51,810 nucleotides of DNA from an uncultured bacterium (GTDB lineage: Bacteria; Chloroflexota; Dehalococcoidia; UBA2979): the NCBI GenBank assembly GCA_964011795.1, contig CAXGQC010000001.1, positions 1 to 51,810 on the forward strand. The letters are read 5' to 3'. The position numbers and the translations under genes were made by a program. Within the stretch, counting starts at the first letter, position 1; every line of letters starts with the position of its first letter. Positions 2,665 to 13,210 of this stretch are shown here, piece after piece. Under the pieces are notes generated by a model that saw only the letters and a list, made by a program, of their open reading frames with translations, was not told where the DNA came from and made no database searches.

Positions 2665-3462
2665 ATGACCCGGTCACTAATTCTTATATTTTGTTCCGTG
2701 TTAATAGTCGTCGGATGCACGACCTCAGCAAATACTTGGAGCAGGTTTATTCATGGGTCGCCCTATGCCGGAACGGTCTGGAATTTTCCAGATGTGATTA
2801 ATTCAGAGGATCCGTCATCGTTTCTAGAAATCACCTACTCTGGGAAAGAATCACGACAAATGTACGACAGAGGGCAAAACGGCTGGATTCAAGATACTCC
2901 ACATCTGTTCATTGCCCAGTACTCAGACAATTTAACCATTGAAGTTCAAGTAAATTCGGAGTTTGAAGATTTGGACATTGCGCGTGAAATAGCGTCTGAT
3001 TATGCATGGCGGGTGGGACAGTTGCCGACGTTATTAAGAAAAGGGGTTAAAACTCTTTGGATTCATAATGGCAAACATCCGTTTGGTGGTGGCAACGAAA
3101 GCATTGACATATATATTGAGCAAGGGAAGGAATATGCGTCGCACAATGTTCTCGAAGAAGTGCTCATACATGAGGGAGCACATGCCTCACTTAACTGGCC
3201 TGGGCCATTACTGGATCACGGAAAGACACCAGGATGGTTACTGGCTCAGCAGTCAGATGAAGGATTTATTTCTCTGTACGCCAAACAGCACCCGCAAAGA
3301 GAAGATATTGCCGAGAGTTTCTTACCTTGGTTTGCATTGCGGTATCGTCTGGACAGGATTTCAGAGTCCGATCAACGCAAAATATTAGAAGCAATTCCTC
3401 ACCGACTTAGATATTTCGACGAACAAGAGTTTGCTATGTATCCGGTCACGGCAAGCAACTAG
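2665..3462 (+). CDS. lipoprotein with HExxH zinc-metallopeptidase-like motif
   Basis: Signal peptide plus lipobox (VLIVVGCTT). The motif VLIHEGAHASL is present. ORF is 265 aa. Confidence 0.65.
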   Translation: MTRSLILIFCSVLIVVGCTTSANTWSRFIHGSPYAGTVWNFPDVINSEDPSSFLEITYSGKESRQMYDRGQNGWIQDTPHLFIAQYSDNLTIEVQVNSEFEDLDIAREIASDYAWRVGQLPTLLRKGVKTLWIHNGKHPFGGGNESIDIYIEQGKEYASHNVLEEVLIHEGAHASLNWPGPLLDHGKTPGWLLAQQSDEGFISLYAKQHPQREDIAESFLPWFALRYRLDRISESDQRKILEAIPHRLRYFDEQEFAMYPVTASN

Positions 3463-6843: not shown

Positions 6844-7152
6844 ATGATTTTCCATGTGATAGCTGAACATGACCACAGCACCTGTGGCCGTGTCGAAAAT
6901 GGTGTAGTAACTAAAACTTGGGAAGATGTTGCGCCAAATGCTACGGCTTGGGTAGAAGGCAGTGACGACGCGAACGTCCTGGGTGTCTGGGGCTATCCCG
7001 TCCAACATCGTATTTTTGCAATAGTTGAGGCAGACACATTTGAGGCTGTCGAATCACTATTCGATTTTCATCTCGCTAAGGGACCAGTTGAGGTTTTACC
7101 AGTGAGGGATTTGATTCAGAGCCGAAAAGATCTCGGATTATGGGGCCAATAA
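6844..7152 (+). CDS. S-family copy 1: ~100-aa soluble protein with HVIAEHDHSTC motif, unknown function
   Basis: 102 aa, divergent from P1. Paralogue of 10585..10878, with 45 of 58 identical residues over the C-terminal half by hand count. Confidence 0.75.
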   Translation: MIFHVIAEHDHSTCGRVENGVVTKTWEDVAPNATAWVEGSDDANVLGVWGYPVQHRIFAIVEADTFEAVESLFDFHLAKGPVEVLPVRDLIQSRKDLGLWGQ

Positions 7153-7250: not shown

Positions 7251-8618
7251 TTACGACCAGTTGTCACCAACCAATTCGATACTTTTTTGCTCTGCCTTCC
7301 TGGAGAACTCCTCAGCAAAATATGAACAGAGACCCGTATATTGCTCTGGATCGAGCAGCTCAGAAATTGCGTTTGTGGTTAATCGTTCTTTTATGTCGGG
7401 CTCTTCTTGTAGTGTCTCTGTAAATGGCCTCCCCTCGTTAACAGATCTTTGCGCCGCTTCATAAACAACGTCGTGAGCCTTTTGCCGGCCCATTTCTCGG
7501 CCCAGTTCGAGCATGATTTTCTCAGAGAGTATTAATCCACCACTGAGTTCAAGATTCTGTCTCATCCGATCAGGGAAAACTTTGAGATCCGAAAATATCT
7601 CAATCAGTGCAGCGGTAATTTGTCCCATTAGTATGCATGTTCTATCGATAGCTGAGTTGATCATCATACTGGTGGTTTTATCAGCCTCGTGCTCAGTTTG
7701 CATCGCTTCCAGCGACATTGGTACGAATGTACGGATTTCTGACGCCCAAGCAACAACGTCCTGGCACAGACGTGGATTGCGCTTCTGAGGCATGGTTGAT
7801 GACCCAACTGCGCCCAGAGGCACAGGTTCTTCAACTTCACCGAACTCCTGTTTCATCATGGTATAGATTTCACGAGACATTTTGCTTGCGGTAGCAGCAA
7901 GCATGGCAAGAATAGTGATGTACTCCGTCAGATGATCGCCGATCACCCTAGACGGCATAGACATCGATCCTAATCCTAACTCCTCGCCAATTAGCCTTTG
8001 AGTCTCAAGACCCTCGAGACCGACCGAAGCCATCGTCCCTGCTCCTCCACCAAGCATCGCCACAAAGACTCGTTCCTCGCTCCCTTGCAGGCGCTCTACA
8101 TGTCGTATTAATTCGTCAATCCACACAGCTACTTTGTAGCCGAAGGTTGCCGGAACAGCATGCTGCCCGTGAGTCCTTCCAGGTAGGGCATAGTCCTTCG
8201 TCTCTTCTGCCAATCTACCGAGCACATGGAGCAGAGTCCCGAGATCCTTCAAAAACCTCTCATGACACTCTTTAACCAGCAGTATCTTGCCTGTCTGCGT
8301 GATGTTTTGAGTGGTGGCACCCCAGTGTATATACCCACCTGCTTCTTCACCGCAGATTCTGTCTAATTCCCAAATCAGCGGGACTAAGGGGTGTCCTGTT
8401 TTATCTAATCCGTCGTAAATATTTTGCAAATTTAGCAATTCAAGCTTTGCTCTTTCCGTTATCACACCAGCAGCCTCAGTCGGAATTATCCCTTGACTTG
8501 CCTGCGCTCGAGCGAGCGCCGCTTCGACGTCCAAATAAGACTGAAACAAATTGGATTCACTAAATAATTCACTCACAGAGTTACTATTACTATCCCCAGA
8601 AGATGTATTTCCTTGCAT
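7251..8618 (-). CDS. fumarate-lyase superfamily enzyme (adenylosuccinate lyase / 3-carboxymuconate cycloisomerase-like)
   Basis: Signature GSSTMPQKRNP is present. 455 aa. AAGGGGA SD before the ATG. Confidence 0.85.
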   Translation of the reverse strand: MQGNTSSGDSNSNSVSELFSESNLFQSYLDVEAALARAQASQGIIPTEAAGVITERAKLELLNLQNIYDGLDKTGHPLVPLIWELDRICGEEAGGYIHWGATTQNITQTGKILLVKECHERFLKDLGTLLHVLGRLAEETKDYALPGRTHGQHAVPATFGYKVAVWIDELIRHVERLQGSEERVFVAMLGGGAGTMASVGLEGLETQRLIGEELGLGSMSMPSRVIGDHLTEYITILAMLAATASKMSREIYTMMKQEFGEVEEPVPLGAVGSSTMPQKRNPRLCQDVVAWASEIRTFVPMSLEAMQTEHEADKTTSMMINSAIDRTCILMGQITAALIEIFSDLKVFPDRMRQNLELSGGLILSEKIMLELGREMGRQKAHDVVYEAAQRSVNEGRPFTETLQEEPDIKERLTTNAISELLDPEQYTGLCSYFAEEFSRKAEQKSIELVGDNWS

Positions 8619-8782: not shown

Positions 8783-9799
8783 CTAAAACTTGATTACCAT
8801 TTGTATCTGATTTGAGGGCTTGATCAATGACTCAAAGGCTTCCTGTATGTCCTTGAGTTCGATCGTATCGGTATCAGACAATAAAGGTTCCAATACAAAT
8901 TTTTTAGAGGCAATCAGGTCTACCGCGACTTTAAAATCATATGGTTCACTGGCGAAGGTAGTGTTCAGCTGGATTTCTTTACCTGCCCAATCTACCGGCA
9001 ATAGTGGGACATCCTCCCACGCAAGAGCCACCAACATTACGTTGCCTTTTCTTCTCACCATATCCAGAGCATCATGCAGAGTAGGTTTCGCTGCGGCACA
9101 TTCATACACCACATGAGGACCGGCACCATCTGTTAGTTCAATGATGGCTTTTACCGGGTCTTGGGAAGTTGGATCTACCACTGCGTCAGCACCCAGCTCC
9201 AAAGCCACAGATCGTCTGGCTTCGGACGGTTCGGAGACAATAACTTTGGTCGCGCCAGCCGCTTTCGCAGCCTGCAAGCATAAAAGCCCTATCGGACCCG
9301 CCCCCAATACTGCAACGGTATCTCCTAGTTTCTGATTCGATAGTCTGACCGCCCTCGTCACTATGGCACATGGCTCCGCCAAAGCACCCTCCAAATTTGA
9401 TACCTGATCAGGCAGTCTGAGTGGTTCCCATTCCTTAGCAACCGTGTATTCCGCATATCCCCGAGTTCGAGTATTGGTAATGCCCTCAAGACGATAGTTG
9501 TACTGGTCTTGCCTTCTTAGAGGGGATTCCTTACCTGGAGGTGGAGTCCCACCAAGGCCAATCACTCGGTCGCCTACCTTAAACCGGGTTACATCTGAAC
9601 CGACTTTGGAAATTTCTCCGGCGAATTCATGTCCCAACACCGTGTCGGGCGGAGCTATGTCATACAGATATACGTGCACATCTGTGCCACATATCGCACT
9701 GTGCGAAATCTTGATCTGCACTTCATCTGATTGCGGCTCGGGAGTAGGAATTTCTTCCACAACTAAATTCTGTTTACTTTTATACACTGCAGCTCTCAT
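8783..9799 (-). CDS. zinc-dependent alcohol dehydrogenase (MDR family)
   Basis: Motifs CGTDVH, GHEFAGEI and the Rossmann loop GAGPIGL. 338 aa. Confidence 0.9.
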   Translation of the reverse strand: MRAAVYKSKQNLVVEEIPTPEPQSDEVQIKISHSAICGTDVHVYLYDIAPPDTVLGHEFAGEISKVGSDVTRFKVGDRVIGLGGTPPPGKESPLRRQDQYNYRLEGITNTRTRGYAEYTVAKEWEPLRLPDQVSNLEGALAEPCAIVTRAVRLSNQKLGDTVAVLGAGPIGLLCLQAAKAAGATKVIVSEPSEARRSVALELGADAVVDPTSQDPVKAIIELTDGAGPHVVYECAAAKPTLHDALDMVRRKGNVMLVALAWEDVPLLPVDWAGKEIQLNTTFASEPYDFKVAVDLIASKKFVLEPLLSDTDTIELKDIQEAFESLIKPSNQIQMVIKF

Positions 9800-10308
9800 T
9801 TTTCCTCCTCATTAACTTCTACTCCGTCGAATAAGTCGGGCAGCACTCCCTTTTCACCTTCGCTGGAAATACGATCGATCAACGCATCGATTTTATTCTG
9901 AAACTCTTGTGGAAATGCGTTCCGTGCCTCGGAAAAGAATTCGCGGGTCCCCTTCTGCGAAAATAATCCATAGTAGAGCTCGTCCATGTCATATCCTATG
10001 GAATCCTCGTACTCTCCCATGTTCATCCAAGAGGTCATCATCCCTGTAGCGAGCCAAAAAAATTGTTGTTTCTCTTTTTGATCCAAAGACTGATAATCCA
10101 CTTGACCCCGTATAAAAAGATCACTTAGTTCACGATCTTTTCCCATAGCACTACGATACGTATCGAGTCTGCTCTGAATTCGCATAGTTATATCTTTTTG
10201 AGAATCTCTATGCTGTAAACGCAACTGACTTGCAAGAAACACTGCGACTCCAAGGGTAGCGATACCGGTTATGATTTGCGCTGTGATCGCAACCTGCTCC
10301 CAGTCCAT
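9796..10308 (-). CDS. P-family copy 2: TM-anchored protein, unknown function
   Basis: N-terminus MDWEQVAITAQIITGIATLGVAVFLASQLRLQHRDS. Its stop overlaps the ADH start codon (4-nt overlap). Confidence 0.8.
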   Translation of the reverse strand: MDWEQVAITAQIITGIATLGVAVFLASQLRLQHRDSQKDITMRIQSRLDTYRSAMGKDRELSDLFIRGQVDYQSLDQKEKQQFFWLATGMMTSWMNMGEYEDSIGYDMDELYYGLFSQKGTREFFSEARNAFPQEFQNKIDALIDRISSEGEKGVLPDLFDGVEVNEEEK

Positions 10309-10400
10309 GACTGTATCCCTTCATCGCCAGATGAGGGTAGCTGTTTTTGAAGTGATTTGTAACAAATCGAGAGCACTGAATAATTAGGAGCGCCGGCTAT

Positions 10401-10559
10401 CTAATCTTCTTTTGTTTCCAAAGAGTCGAGGAAAATAACTGTAGCAATACCAGCAACAAGGCCAATAATGGTGCTTGGGACCGTACCTCCACCTGCGAAA
10501 GTAACGATACTAAAGTTGACGACCATCCCTACAACTACGCCGATAACTAGATTTCGCAT
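10401..10559 (-). CDS. mini-ORF, 52 aa, two-TM Gly-rich peptide (MRNLVIGVVVGMVVNFSIVTFAGGGTVPSTIIGLVAGIATVIFLDSLETKED)
   Basis: Hand-translated. It sits between S2 and P2 on the same strand. Confidence 0.35.
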   Translation of the reverse strand: MRNLVIGVVVGMVVNFSIVTFAGGGTVPSTIIGLVAGIATVIFLDSLETKED

Positions 10560-10584
10560 AACTCATTCTAGCTCTTATGGAAAT

Positions 10585-10878
10585 CTAATTCGCTCCCCAA
10601 AAACCTTGATCTTTCCGAAGTTGAACTAAGTCCTTCACTGGAAGTACTTCCACAGGGCCCATACCAAGATGAAAATCAAACAGTGATTCCACATCCTCGA
10701 ATGTATCGGCCTCAACCACGGAGAAAACACGATGCGACACTGGATATCCCCATACTCCGAGAATGTTCACCTTGTCATTTCCCTCAACCCAGGTCATCCC
10801 AGACTTTGCAAAACCTGGCCCTTCCTTCACCCTGTTACAGGTACTGTGGTCATGTTGTGCAATTACATGAAAAATCAT
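10585..10878 (-). CDS. S-family copy 2: ~100-aa protein with HVIAQHDHSTC motif
   Basis: The ATG at 10878 has a perfect AAGGAGG SD, and the product aligns with S1 from residue 1 (MIFHVIA). The longer 10905 start is not supported. Confidence 0.8.
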   Translation of the reverse strand: MIFHVIAQHDHSTCNRVKEGPGFAKSGMTWVEGNDKVNILGVWGYPVSHRVFSVVEADTFEDVESLFDFHLGMGPVEVLPVKDLVQLRKDQGFWGAN

Positions 10879-11050
10879 GTATACCTCCTTCATCATCCCT
10901 GTCACGCGCGGAATCTATGGTCTACACCACCAACACCCCGATGCTCAAACTTGACAAATTTTGTCAGGTTTACAAGACTATATCGGAAAACCCAAACTTG
11001 AACGAAAATCACGTGGGTTTGGAAAAAGCACAATTTGCAAAGGAGACGCA

Positions 11051-11458
11051 ATGTTAGGTGAAAAAGTAGGTAATATATCTGGTCCAACAGCGGTAAAGGC
11101 CCTTCCGGCTACAAACGGGAATCCTACGTTTGAAACGACCGCAGCCGGGCTCAGCGGCACACTCGCTGGCGTCGAAGTACAAAGCTTTGCTACATATTCG
11201 GCAGAGATGAAACCAAATGGCAAACTTTACGGTGAATGTCCTAATGCAGGCGTAGTGATGACAGCAGATGGAGTTGCGACCTTTCGAGCGACCGGGGTGG
11301 GACAATTCATGGAAGATGGTAGTGCCGTCTTTAAGGGCGTTGTCTACTTTGAAGCGTCTGCTCCCTCTCTGGCTTCTATAGATGGAATTGCCGTGGTGTA
11401 TGACTGGGTAGTCGATCCACAGGGGAACGCTACTTGGGATCTATGGGAGTGGAAATAA
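11051..11458 (+). CDS. 135-aa Gly/Val/Thr-rich (beta-rich) protein, unknown function
   Basis: AAGGAGA SD 5 nt before the ATG at 11051. A strong hairpin follows the stop. Confidence 0.65.
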   Translation: MLGEKVGNISGPTAVKALPATNGNPTFETTAAGLSGTLAGVEVQSFATYSAEMKPNGKLYGECPNAGVVMTADGVATFRATGVGQFMEDGSAVFKGVVYFEASAPSLASIDGIAVVYDWVVDPQGNATWDLWEWK

Positions 11459-11471
11459 CCCATATTTATCA

Positions 11472-11513
11472 TTGGTGAGAGATCGCCATCAAATGATGGC
11501 GATCTCTCACCAA
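11472..11513 (+). terminator. perfect 19-bp stem hairpin (TTGGTGAGAGATCGCCATC-AAAT-GATGGCGATCTCTCACCAA)
   Basis: Read directly from the sequence, 14 nt after the stop of 11051..11458. The downstream T-tract is weak. Confidence 0.5.
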
Positions 11514-11628
11514 GCAGTGCTCTTTATCTGAATACGCTCAATTTACTCTATTCAAAATATGACTCACTTACTCCCACGATCTATAATTGACTTAGAAGCG
11601 CACGCAGCAAAGACCGTAATGAGACGAT

Positions 11629-12021
11629 ATGGCTATTACACCAGAACAAGCACTACGGGAATCTGTTGAGGCTATCGGGACGAGCAAGAAGAAAAAATAT
11701 AGAGATACTATTCATCCTCCTGTACATCAGATTATTGTCTCTGACTTCGAGGATCGACGATTTGATGAATCAAATATACCGGAGTACATGTCTGATATTT
11801 GGGAGGAATATTTGCCGGATTGGGCCGGCAGCACTTGCACCTTGGACTCTTTCGAAATAATTATTCAGGACTCGTTGAAAGTCGCATATCTAATTAAAGC
11901 AAGTCGCTTATTTCCTGATGGGTCGCTAATGCAAACATTCAACGCGATTTTCACCGTTGGTAATAAAGACGGGGATTGGAGACTCATCAGTCGAAATCCC
12001 TTCAACATCACCAAGGCGTAA
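11629..12021 (+). CDS. NTF2/SnoaL-like small protein (tentative)
   Basis: 130 aa. Size and C-terminal pattern (GDWRLISR) resemble the cone-like alpha+beta NTF2 fold. Weak call. Confidence 0.5.
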   Translation: MAITPEQALRESVEAIGTSKKKKYRDTIHPPVHQIIVSDFEDRRFDESNIPEYMSDIWEEYLPDWAGSTCTLDSFEIIIQDSLKVAYLIKASRLFPDGSLMQTFNAIFTVGNKDGDWRLISRNPFNITKA

Positions 12022-13210
12022 ACCTATTTTCCCAAAACTAACAGGGTTACGGCTTCTCTCACTGTGGTGGATATTTCGATGGGCATCTCTTGGTGAAGCG
12101 ATATGGTCTGTTTATCTAATAGAACAGCGCGGATTGAGCTTGGGAACGGTACTTGCATTCGAGGCGGCTTGGTGGATATTCGTAATCTCACTTGAAGTAC
12201 CAACTGGGTTAATTACTGACCGCTGGGGACGAAAGAAATCATTAGTTACTGGATCAATCCTTGGAACATTGGGTTTCCTCGTTTTTGGTTTCTCAGCGAG
12301 TCCGTTTCTTCTTTTGTTTGCGTATCTGATTTGGGGTTTAGGGGACACTTTCATATCTGGTACTGATTCAGCATTCTTGTTTGAAAAACTGAAAAACAGA
12401 GGCGAAGAACACCGATATGCGCAGTACGAAGGTTGGCTGAATGCCGGTGCACTAGTAGTTATTGCAACCACAACCGCCCTTGGACCTCTACTACTGATTT
12501 GGACATCACTCGCAGTACCCTTCATCCTCACATCAATTTTTGGAGTGCTGCTAATCGCCGTGTCGCTATCGCTGAAAGAACCCGAAGATCTGCAGGATGG
12601 CACCACTGACGAATCTTATTCCAAAGGTTTTAGATCAGCTATTGGAATCATAACCACACCAGCGGTCGCGGGAATTGTATGCCTCAAAGCCATTCCGGAA
12701 ATGTCCTTGGCGATACTGCTACTGACGCTTCCAAAAACACTCGCAAATTATGGCCTCAGCACCTACGAATTCGGATGGTGGATGGCGCTAATTTTCCTAT
12801 TAATGGCGGGGACCTCAATATTCGCTGGTCGTGCCACAAAACTTTTCTCTATCTGGCAGTGGTTAGGACTGGCAGGGATCGCCTCAGCAGCTGCATTTAT
12901 CTTGTCCACCGGCTCCTCGCTTTGGTTATTTCCTCTATGTGTTTTGCCTGCCCTATTCCTACCGGTTACAGAACCGCATGTCCATCAATTCTTGGCCGAC
13001 AGAACGGACGTAGCCAATCGAGCCACAACACTCTCAGTCGCCAACGCTACTATGTCGATTGTTATTGCCACATCTATATTCGGCGGAGCCTGGATTATGG
13101 ACGAGTTCGGATTCCTCACCGCTATGAGAATTTTCGCCTGTGCCACAGCCGTATTGTTAGTCATTGGGTTTGCATTTTGGTCCCTTGACCGACAAAACTA
13201 CGCGCGATGA
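11957..13210 (+). CDS. MFS transporter
   Basis: About 12 predicted TM segments and the loop 2-3 motif GLITDRWGRKK. The start is uncertain: the only ATG overlaps the upstream gene by 65 nt. Confidence 0.8.
   Translation: MVIKTGIGDSSVEIPSTSPRRKPIFPKLTGLRLLSLWWIFRWASLGEAIWSVYLIEQRGLSLGTVLAFEAAWWIFVISLEVPTGLITDRWGRKKSLVTGSILGTLGFLVFGFSASPFLLLFAYLIWGLGDTFISGTDSAFLFEKLKNRGEEHRYAQYEGWLNAGALVVIATTTALGPLLLIWTSLAVPFILTSIFGVLLIAVSLSLKEPEDLQDGTTDESYSKGFRSAIGIITTPAVAGIVCLKAIPEMSLAILLLTLPKTLANYGLSTYEFGWWMALIFLLMAGTSIFAGRATKLFSIWQWLGLAGIASAAAFILSTGSSLWLFPLCVLPALFLPVTEPHVHQFLADRTDVANRATTLSVANATMSIVIATSIFGGAWIMDEFGFLTAMRIFACATAVLLVIGFAFWSLDRQNYAR

Follow-up and report, generated by a model that had tools for sequence, protein, structure and literature searches.

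A probable mosaic gene run joining a DUF3303 protein, a multi-copy membrane protein and an alcohol dehydrogenase in a SAR202 genome

Organization of the gene run

The DNA analyzed here (the window) is a stretch of 51,810 nucleotides (nt), positions 1 to 51,810 of contig CAXGQC010000001.1 (assembly GCA_964011795.1), from an uncultured bacterium of the Dehalococcoidia lineage UBA2979, and all coordinates refer to it. Its minus strand carries a run of four collinear genes, S2-M2-P2-ADH. The first, S2 (10585..10878; ATG at 10878..10876, stop at 10587..10585), encodes a DUF3303 protein of 97 amino acids (aa), and a Shine-Dalgarno (SD) motif, AAGGAGG (10884..10890), can be read from the sequence 5 nt ahead of its ATG. 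A longer open reading frame (ORF) from a GTG at 10905 was rejected as an over-extension because every homologue begins with MIFH. M2 (10401..10559) encodes a Gly-rich mini-protein of 52 aa, a clade-restricted orphan with two hydrophobic, putatively transmembrane (TM) segments rich in Gly and with GxxxG-type motifs. P2 (9796..10308) encodes a predicted bitopic membrane protein of 170 aa and is one copy of a multi-copy family. The last gene, ADH (8783..9799), encodes a 338-aa protein of the medium-chain (Zn-type) alcohol dehydrogenase family (PF08240 and PF00107). S2 and M2 are 25 nt apart and M2 and P2 92 nt apart, while P2 and ADH overlap in the sequence ATGA (9796..9799), which contains both the P2 stop codon TGA (9798..9796) and the ADH start codon ATG (9799..9797). 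A second SD motif, GAGGAGG (9804..9810), lies within the 3' end of P2, 4 nt ahead of the ADH start. The coordinates, the collinear order on the minus strand, the AAGGAGG motif and the 4-nt overlap all agree with a preliminary description of this DNA.

No terminator-like site was found on the minus strand from S2 to the ADH start, and promoter-like sites over the same interval are no more frequent than in shuffled sequences. This holds at the P2-ADH junction as well; the two genes thus have the arrangement of a coupled gene pair, on the same strand and with overlapping stop and start codons. The 5' leaders of S2, M2, P2 and the two P2 paralogues described below (P1 and P3) do not fold better than shuffled sequences (z from -1.7 to +1.3), and an apparent hairpin over the P2 SD motif was dropped accordingly. 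A search of Rfam at E <= 1 returned two sub-threshold microRNA models, both on a hairpin at 11476..11513, and nothing relevant. Given four collinear genes at close spacing, an ATGA junction and the lack of terminator-like sites, co-transcription and some translational coupling are plausible: S2-M2-P2-ADH is probably one transcript, and P2 and ADH may plausibly be coupled to some degree. The ATGA overlap is kept in the related locus L010 and in L011, which is 91% identical to the window. The preliminary description regarded co-translation of P2 and ADH as almost certain. It is plausible on these grounds, but since ADH carries its own GAGGAGG, coupling is not required for its translation.

Three haplotypes at the locus

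Comparison with related loci (designated by L numbers) revealed three haplotypes. H1, found in the window and in L010, L012 and L062-L065, has the order S2-M2-P2-ADH. H2 (L011, about 91% nucleotide identity) lacks window positions 10588..11566 and keeps M2-P2-ADH together with the ATGA overlap. H3 (L142 and L143, two independent assemblies reached through a 78% identical M2 homologue) lacks both 10588..11566 and 9834..10417, and its M2 is followed by 54 nt and then by ADH.

The cassette-like 979-bp segment missing in L011, L142 and L143 (10588..11566) contains S2, its upstream region, a divergent orphan gene (U165) and a hairpin. Its breakpoints by blastn are at window positions 10587/10588 and 11566/11567, and the S2-less junction is identical in the three contigs. 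One end of the segment is only 1-3 nt away from the stop codon of S2, and no direct repeats flanking the indel are visible by eye in the junction sequences. U165 (11054..11458, plus strand) is 134 aa long from an ATG or 165 aa from a TTG at 10961 and is transcribed divergently from S2; searches of Pfam, NCBIfam, PHROGs and PADLOC gave it no family, and it occurs only in loci of the H1 haplotype. The hairpin (11476..11513), detected as a blastn self-match, is a perfect 17-bp inverted repeat with a 4-nt loop and lies after U165 at the edge of the segment.

The stretch missing only in H3 (9834..10417, minus strand) takes in the 3' end of M2, the spacer that follows it and P2 from codon 1 to about codon 158. 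The 54 nt left between M2 and ADH in this haplotype retain an in-frame remnant of the P2 tail, SDLFDGVEVMEEWK, up to its stop codon, as well as the SD motif (GGAGGAG) and the ATGA. P0002, an 80% identical P2 orthologue in a different genome context, carries the homologous tail GVIPNLFGGIEH in the corresponding position. The tail SDLFDGVEVMEEWK is thus native to P2, which makes H3 a deletion derivative. The M2 genes of H2 and H3 have only about 80% nucleotide identity, yet the two haplotypes have the S2-less junction in common, and H1 nests near H2. The most economical interpretation is that S2 and U165 were inserted in the H1 lineage.

A further discontinuity is seen in L142. The flank of this locus carrying the AKR, MFS and U130 genes (L142 1-2848) is 97.5% identical to the window, compared with 79.5% for M2 and 86% for the start of ADH (2845-3169), and the drop lies precisely at the intergenic junction of U130 and M2. 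Homologous recombination there between diverged lineages of SAR202 is thereby indicated, so the locus is a recombination mosaic as well.

The stable core of the locus is M2, followed by ADH and then by a gene of the class-II lyase family. M2 itself has two homologous clusters only (94% and 78% identity) among 5.8 billion proteins, and is assigned to no family by Pfam, NCBIfam, PHROG or PADLOC; none of the other P genes is preceded by a similar small TM ORF. Its ORF is intact in every relative compared (L010, L011 and L142), and the ratio of synonymous to non-synonymous codon differences is 5:1 for L010, 3:2 for L011 and 14:11 for L142, where all replacements are conservative (binomial p = 0.001 for L010 and L011 pooled). 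Because the ORF is always intact and the changes are mostly synonymous or conservative, M2 is evidently a real gene under purifying selection. Conservation of this mini-ORF in related genomes, on which the preliminary description had counted, extends no further than a narrow clade at species level.

The haplotypes show that the components of the run have separate histories and that each is dispensable in nature. The run S2-M2-P2-ADH is real and is probably transcribed as one unit. We consider it rather probable that it is a mosaic, young and specific to this strain, rather than a conserved functional module; it would be a recent arrangement whose parts come and go between close relatives. This differs from the preliminary description, which had treated S, M and P as a module. 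It had also suggested, as a speculation, that P may serve soluble catabolic enzymes as a membrane tether, scaffold or sensor. Developed into a full model, P would recruit the enzyme encoded downstream, and S and M2 would be accessory subunits. The P2/ADH overlap with no terminator-like site in between speaks for such a link. However, S2 is missing in L011, L142 and L143, P2 is deleted in L142 and L143 while ADH, its SD motif and its start remain intact, and in L011 the orthologue of the paralogue P1 is frameshifted while the start of the CoA-transferase gene downstream is intact. H1, H2 and H3 provide a natural "deletion series" for asking in metagenomes and metatranscriptomes whether P2 or S2 affects ADH.

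U130 (11629..12021, plus strand), the gene at the recombination junction, encodes a protein of 130 aa with no match in the four family libraries searched. It is the divergent neighbor of M2 in the S2-less haplotypes, is 81-85% conserved over several SAR202 lineages and is repeatedly found near S and/or P (L019, L085-L091). Its 3' end overlaps a TTG-started MFS ORF (11957..13210), whose true start is probably later.

The P family

A tblastn search within the window identified three copies of P and two of S. P1 (6306..6749, minus strand), a P2 paralogue 90 nt upstream of a gene for a 799-aa double CoA-transferase, and S1, a paralogue of S2, are present as the preliminary description had them; P3 (14370..14861, minus strand), which it did not include, is a third paralogue and has only a convergent gene after it. 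The window derives from a Dehalococcoidia genome of the SAR202 type, and its P2 shares 99% protein identity with a copy on a contig of Dehalococcoidia bacterium UBA2979. A word-indexed search returned 19 relatives of P, and a profile search of 1.84 billion representatives returned 1463 clusters at E <= 1e-3. At least nine copies are present on four contigs of a single metagenome-assembled genome (MAG).

None of the three P proteins in the window reaches a family threshold in Pfam or NCBIfam, and NCBIfam has no name for the family. P1 and P2 have no match to DUF6082 (PF19560), and P3 scores 13.3 bits (E = 0.064) where the gathering threshold is 26.7 bits. Six of 54 diverse members defined by the profile do match DUF6082 at E <= 0.01, the best with E = 2.5e-8. 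Size (150-190 aa) and architecture are also alike, with a TM helix at the N-terminus and a helical domain behind it; in P2 a hydrophobic segment at about residues 6-29 precedes a helical domain of about 130 aa. P differs from DUF6082 in that the branch found in SAR202 and marine Acidimicrobiia has a near-invariant TM segment, MDWEQLTIIAQIATGVATLAVAVFLASQLRxQHRD. P is best described as a remote, unnamed relative of the uncharacterized DUF6082 and, judged by these scores, not as a member of it. No paper in the literature collection searched mentions DUF6082.

The AlphaFold2 model of P2 is confident (predicted local distance difference test score, pLDDT, 93) and entirely helical, with one helix spanning residues 3-57 and six shorter helices in a compact domain. 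Searches of the PDB and BFVD with this fold returned nothing at E <= 0.001. Because the N-terminus is acidic (MDWEQ) and basic residues (R30, H33, R34 and K38) follow the TM segment, the positive-inside rule suggests an N-out/C-in topology, which would place the variable domain in the cytoplasm. Conservation is very uneven along the protein. Among 20 members of the SAR202 type, mean pairwise identity is 0.82 over residues 1-35 and 0.31 over residues 36-150. Across the wider family, L25 (54/54), Q28 (50/54) and Q or E at position 11 (51/54) are conserved, as are small residues at positions 10, 14, 15, 17, 22 and 26. A helix face with small residues at every three to four positions and with buried polar residues is typical of helix-helix packing, and the pattern in the P helix can be read in this way. 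Gene conversion was rejected as the source of the conserved N-terminus: synonymous sites differ among the three paralogues of the window, so the conservation reflects selection on the protein. What can be recognized here is a large, unnamed, multi-copy bitopic family whose TM helix is unusually conserved and whose fold is predicted with confidence and resembles no solved structure. The conserved helix is the only intriguing feature among the properties of these genes.

On this basis we tentatively suggest a mechanism for P, which as a whole (topology, docking by the TM helix, role of the variable domain, no tie to an enzyme) is possible but still rather doubtful. P proteins would be bitopic, N-out/C-in membrane proteins whose TM helix self-associates or docks to one common membrane partner, and the fast-evolving cytoplasmic helical domain would have a paralogue-specific role in binding or regulation, not in catalysis. 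That role would be independent of the enzyme encoded downstream, and the co-expression of P2 and ADH would be a result of where P2 landed.

P genes appear to be gained and lost frequently. Tandem arrays of two to four divergent copies, 30-105 nt apart, were observed in L001-L006, L014-L018 and L047; the last of these has three copies inside 5 kb, beside the housekeeping genes YggS-like, proC, yggT, recA, recX and rny. Disrupted copies occur in L011 (3951-4420, the P1 orthologue, with a 148-bp deletion and a frameshift), in L013 (5001-5468, in-frame stop at codon 11) and in L017 (5568-6085, an ORF split by a frameshift), each of which may be a true pseudogene or an error of assembly. Combined with the loss of P2 in H3, they suggest high turnover of P, and the family as a whole follows birth-and-death dynamics. 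Relative to L011, the ratio of non-synonymous to synonymous differences is 7:14 for P2 and 7:59 for ADH (Fisher p = 0.035); ADH is under strong purifying selection.

Such dynamics would also fit a fast-turnover family that functions outside metabolism, for example in membrane-level conflict, immunity or exclusion, or envelope stress. Copies would then spread by duplication or insertion into tolerant operons, the conserved N-terminus being the functional or effector part and the C-terminus diversifying. The tandem arrays, the many copies per genome, several of them pseudogenized or deleted, the raised substitution ratio of P2 and the contrast between conserved N-terminus and variable C-terminus all point in this direction. 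In addition, one distant P member matches a phage family of unassigned function, phrog_32627 (E = 2e-5), and a distant member in L145 lies within a run of small unannotated genes; the contexts of L145 and of two further distant relatives (L146 and L147) are short contigs and uninformative. On the other hand, PADLOC has no match for any P member tested and PHROG has none for P1, P2 or P3, and none of the window proteins P, S and M2 is recognized by these anti-phage and phage-gene libraries. A tblastn search of 72,556 plasmids with a distant P member gave a single weak match, and no integrase, transposase or toxin-like gene is present among the P neighbors examined. A variable domain in the cytoplasm, as the predicted topology has it, is also a poor fit to diversifying selection on a surface-exposed part. 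We therefore regard a role of this kind as quite unlikely.

Gene neighborhoods of P and S

The genes downstream of P were surveyed in about 17 independent contexts and are heterogeneous. P is followed by another P copy in tandem arrays of two to four (L001, L014-L018), by an alpha/beta hydrolase gene (L007, L022, L029), by MOSC with a 4-nt overlap (L025, L027), by DinB_2 (L023, L032, L037), by a methyltransferase gene with an 8-nt overlap (L039), by MFS (L031), by an SCO4226-like gene (L041), by the orphan U130 (L019) or by DUF3303 (L047-51), or it has a convergent gene only. The gaps to the alpha/beta hydrolase and DinB_2 genes span 12-37 nt, among them one of 12 nt to the hydrolase gene and one of 22 nt to DinB_2. 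ADH or a CoA-transferase follows P only in the lineage of this window, in two cases, which does not bear out the preliminary statement that P repeatedly heads catabolic operons. P2 orthologues of 80% and 51% identity (L144 and L013) lie beside a convergent UbiA/CyoE-like gene and have no adjoining S, M2 or ADH.

The pair of P and the alpha/beta hydrolase is conserved at 73-80% nucleotide identity among L007 (6001-7424), L022 (3795-5189) and L029 (1610-2830). L007 is an unbinned metagenome contig; L022 and L029 belong to MAGs labelled as marine Actinobacteria (MedAcidi-G3 and Microthrix UBA2110). The P family with the conserved TM helix is thus common to SAR202 and marine Acidimicrobiia.

For S, 80 metagenomic loci were grouped into 20 clusters at >= 85% identity. 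Fifteen of these have no P within 4 kb, and in three P is the immediate neighbor, each time in a different orientation: S1 divergent from P1, S2-M2-P2, and P followed by S (the L047/L076 type). Whether three of 20 exceeds chance depends on the background frequency of P as a neighbor, with p = 5e-4 at 0.8% and p = 0.44 at the 12% that corresponds to its density in the window. We attribute the adjacency to co-clustering at the regional level, in genome parts that are variable, and see at most a weak association. A census of 66 neighbors found no recurrent partner of S and only the usual SAR202 mix of enzymes, including lactonase, MR/MLE enolase-superfamily proteins, luciferase-like monooxygenases and SDRs. 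Neither the S-M-P order nor any P-enzyme adjacency is generally kept in relatives.

SAR202 is one of the most abundant groups of bacteria in the dark ocean, and expansions of catabolic enzyme paralogues in them were reportedly described by Saw et al. 2020. In the passages of Landry et al. 2017 on such expansions, the paralogue families discussed are enzyme families, and recalcitrant dissolved organic matter is the presumed substrate of the paralogue-rich sets (PMC5395668). The window resembles this picture, being rich in CoA_transf_3, ECH, luciferase-like monooxygenase, AKR, SDR and ADH genes (PMC5395668). It holds five CoA_transf_3 genes (the double gene and four further ones) and four ECH genes, along with genes for a luciferase-like monooxygenase, an AKR, an SDR, a nitronate monooxygenase, a dienelactone hydrolase and ETF subunits. 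Given this content, with catabolic enzymes a large share of the genes in the window, neighbors of this kind are expected beside P by chance (PMC5395668). The S and P genes of the run are new members of known, uncharacterized families (DUF3303 and DUF6082-like) in a typical SAR202 setting.

Taken together, these surveys leave the proposal that P tethers the enzyme encoded downstream very unlikely. It draws some support from the tight coupling of P elsewhere to MOSC, methyltransferase, alpha/beta hydrolase and DinB_2 genes, from the persistence of the hydrolase pair across loci, from the P-S adjacency in three S lineages and from a predicted topology that puts the variable domain in the same compartment as such enzymes. 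Against it stand, besides the losses of P1, P2 and S2 in relatives, the P2 orthologues with no ADH, S or M2 beside them, the many copies in tandem arrays or followed only by a convergent gene, the 15 S lineages with no P nearby, the lack of M2-like ORFs at every other P locus and the expectation of chance neighbors. If small membrane proteins did organize SAR202 enzymes, this would be a new layer of metabolism, but the present locus does not show it.

A related idea is that the P proteins are paralogous membrane-docking adaptors, in which the near-invariant TM helix serves as an "address" into one shared membrane partner or hetero-oligomer and the cytoplasmic domain captures a soluble protein that differs from copy to copy and is often encoded next door. 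Candidates for the captured protein would be ADH, MOSC, DinB, the alpha/beta hydrolase, the methyltransferase and DUF3303. If true, SAR202 and marine Acidimicrobiia would organize parts of their expanded sets of soluble catabolic enzymes at the membrane. We give this idea a slim chance.

Several points weigh against our preferred reading, in which the run is a recent mosaic and P acts independently of the enzyme downstream. The mechanism proposed for P is drawn from sequence alone. In many cases P stands in close coupling with a soluble protein encoded downstream (ADH and MOSC with 4-nt overlaps, the methyltransferase with an 8-nt overlap), which leaves room for a partner-specific role in each operon. 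The P-S adjacency recurs in three S lineages and in three orientations, and would be beyond chance if P is rare genome-wide. Finally, metagenome assemblies are the source of the disrupted copies and of the deletion haplotypes; two independent assemblies contain the H3 junction, but only one the P1 frameshift of L011.

ADH and the adjoining lyase

ADH has the two domains of the Zn-type alcohol dehydrogenase superfamily (medium-chain dehydrogenase/reductase) in full length, the GroES-like ADH_N (PF08240, E = 5e-19) and the Rossmann-type ADH_zinc_N (PF00107, E = 5e-30), which together extend across the whole protein. It differs from the characterized members in being far below every equivalog cut-off of NCBIfam; the best match, L-threonine 3-dehydrogenase, reaches 170 bits where the cut-off is 458 and is not an equivalog. 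The class-II lyase gene (7251..8618, minus strand) sits between ADH and S1. Its product scores 326 bits on the model for 3-carboxy-cis,cis-muconate cycloisomerase and about 400 bits on an adenylosuccinate-lyase subfamily, both below cut-off. The double CoA-transferase gene downstream of P1 (3816..6215, minus strand) has two CoA_transf_3 stretches and looks like a fused family-III CoA-transferase.

The S proteins

S2 belongs to DUF3303 (PF11746), which it matches over model positions 1-84 of 92 with 24.8 bits, above the gathering cut-off of 21.2. S1 (6844..7152, plus strand), which is 70% identical to S2 and divergent from P1, scores 18.9 bits and falls below this cut-off. A search with S2 returned 25 homologues, named DUF3303 or YCII-related in NCBI and UniRef, and no paper in the literature collection searched mentions DUF3303. 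Like other DUF3303 proteins, S2 is small, with about 100 aa and a ferredoxin-like fold, and it is described as soluble; its AlphaFold2 model (pLDDT 86) has the order beta-alpha-beta-beta-alpha-beta. The SAR202 subgroup differs from the rest of the family in a strongly conserved set of residues, H4, H9, T13-C14, H49 and H70, all invariant or nearly so, which may mark a metal site or an active site.

By sequence, S has no match to any solved structure, either with a single sequence or with a profile. By structure, the best matches of the S2 model in the PDB (Foldseek) are ClcF, a 5-chloromuconolactone isomerase (TM-score 0.58-0.61), SCO4226 and ABM monooxygenases, all with E of about 1e-3; every Foldseek match is a ferredoxin-like protein. 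These dimeric alpha+beta-barrel proteins resemble S in predicted fold and in length (about 95 residues), with a TM-score of about 0.6 to ClcF, but sequence identity is only 11-15% and the E-values are marginal. Homology of S to the SCO4226-like protein encoded downstream of P in L041 was rejected (hhalign probability 0.6%). Most likely, S would be a small ferredoxin-like enzyme of the dimeric alpha+beta-barrel type, or a ligand- or metal-binding protein, of SAR202 catabolic neighborhoods, with a function independent of P.

The PcaB-like lyase, the dienelactone hydrolase family gene and the muconolactone-isomerase-like fold of S give a hint of a lactone- or muconate-type route. A more specific version, which we consider unlikely, is that S is an enzyme resembling muconolactone isomerase and that S, the lyase, ADH and the CoA-transferases belong to a single pathway cluster in which P and M2 are bystanders. 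ClcF is the best structural match with a Foldseek probability of 1.00, the lyase scores on the muconate cycloisomerase model, if below cut-off, the window carries several CoA-transferases besides the dienelactone hydrolase, and the lactonase, MR/MLE, monooxygenase and SDR neighbors of S elsewhere would be in keeping with such a pathway. The ferredoxin-like fold is very common, however, and at a Foldseek E of only about 1e-3, SCO4226, NIPSNAP, ABM and PduA score similarly to ClcF. Nor does any solved structure match S by sequence or any single enzyme family recur beside it, and in L011 the cluster of ADH and the lyase dispenses with S2.

Two S lineages carry further small genes next to S. In L052 (5427-5633), a 68-aa protein with a C-terminal TM anchor is encoded downstream of S, and in L057 (4655-4978) a 107-aa protein is encoded 23 nt upstream of S; both are unrelated to P or M2.

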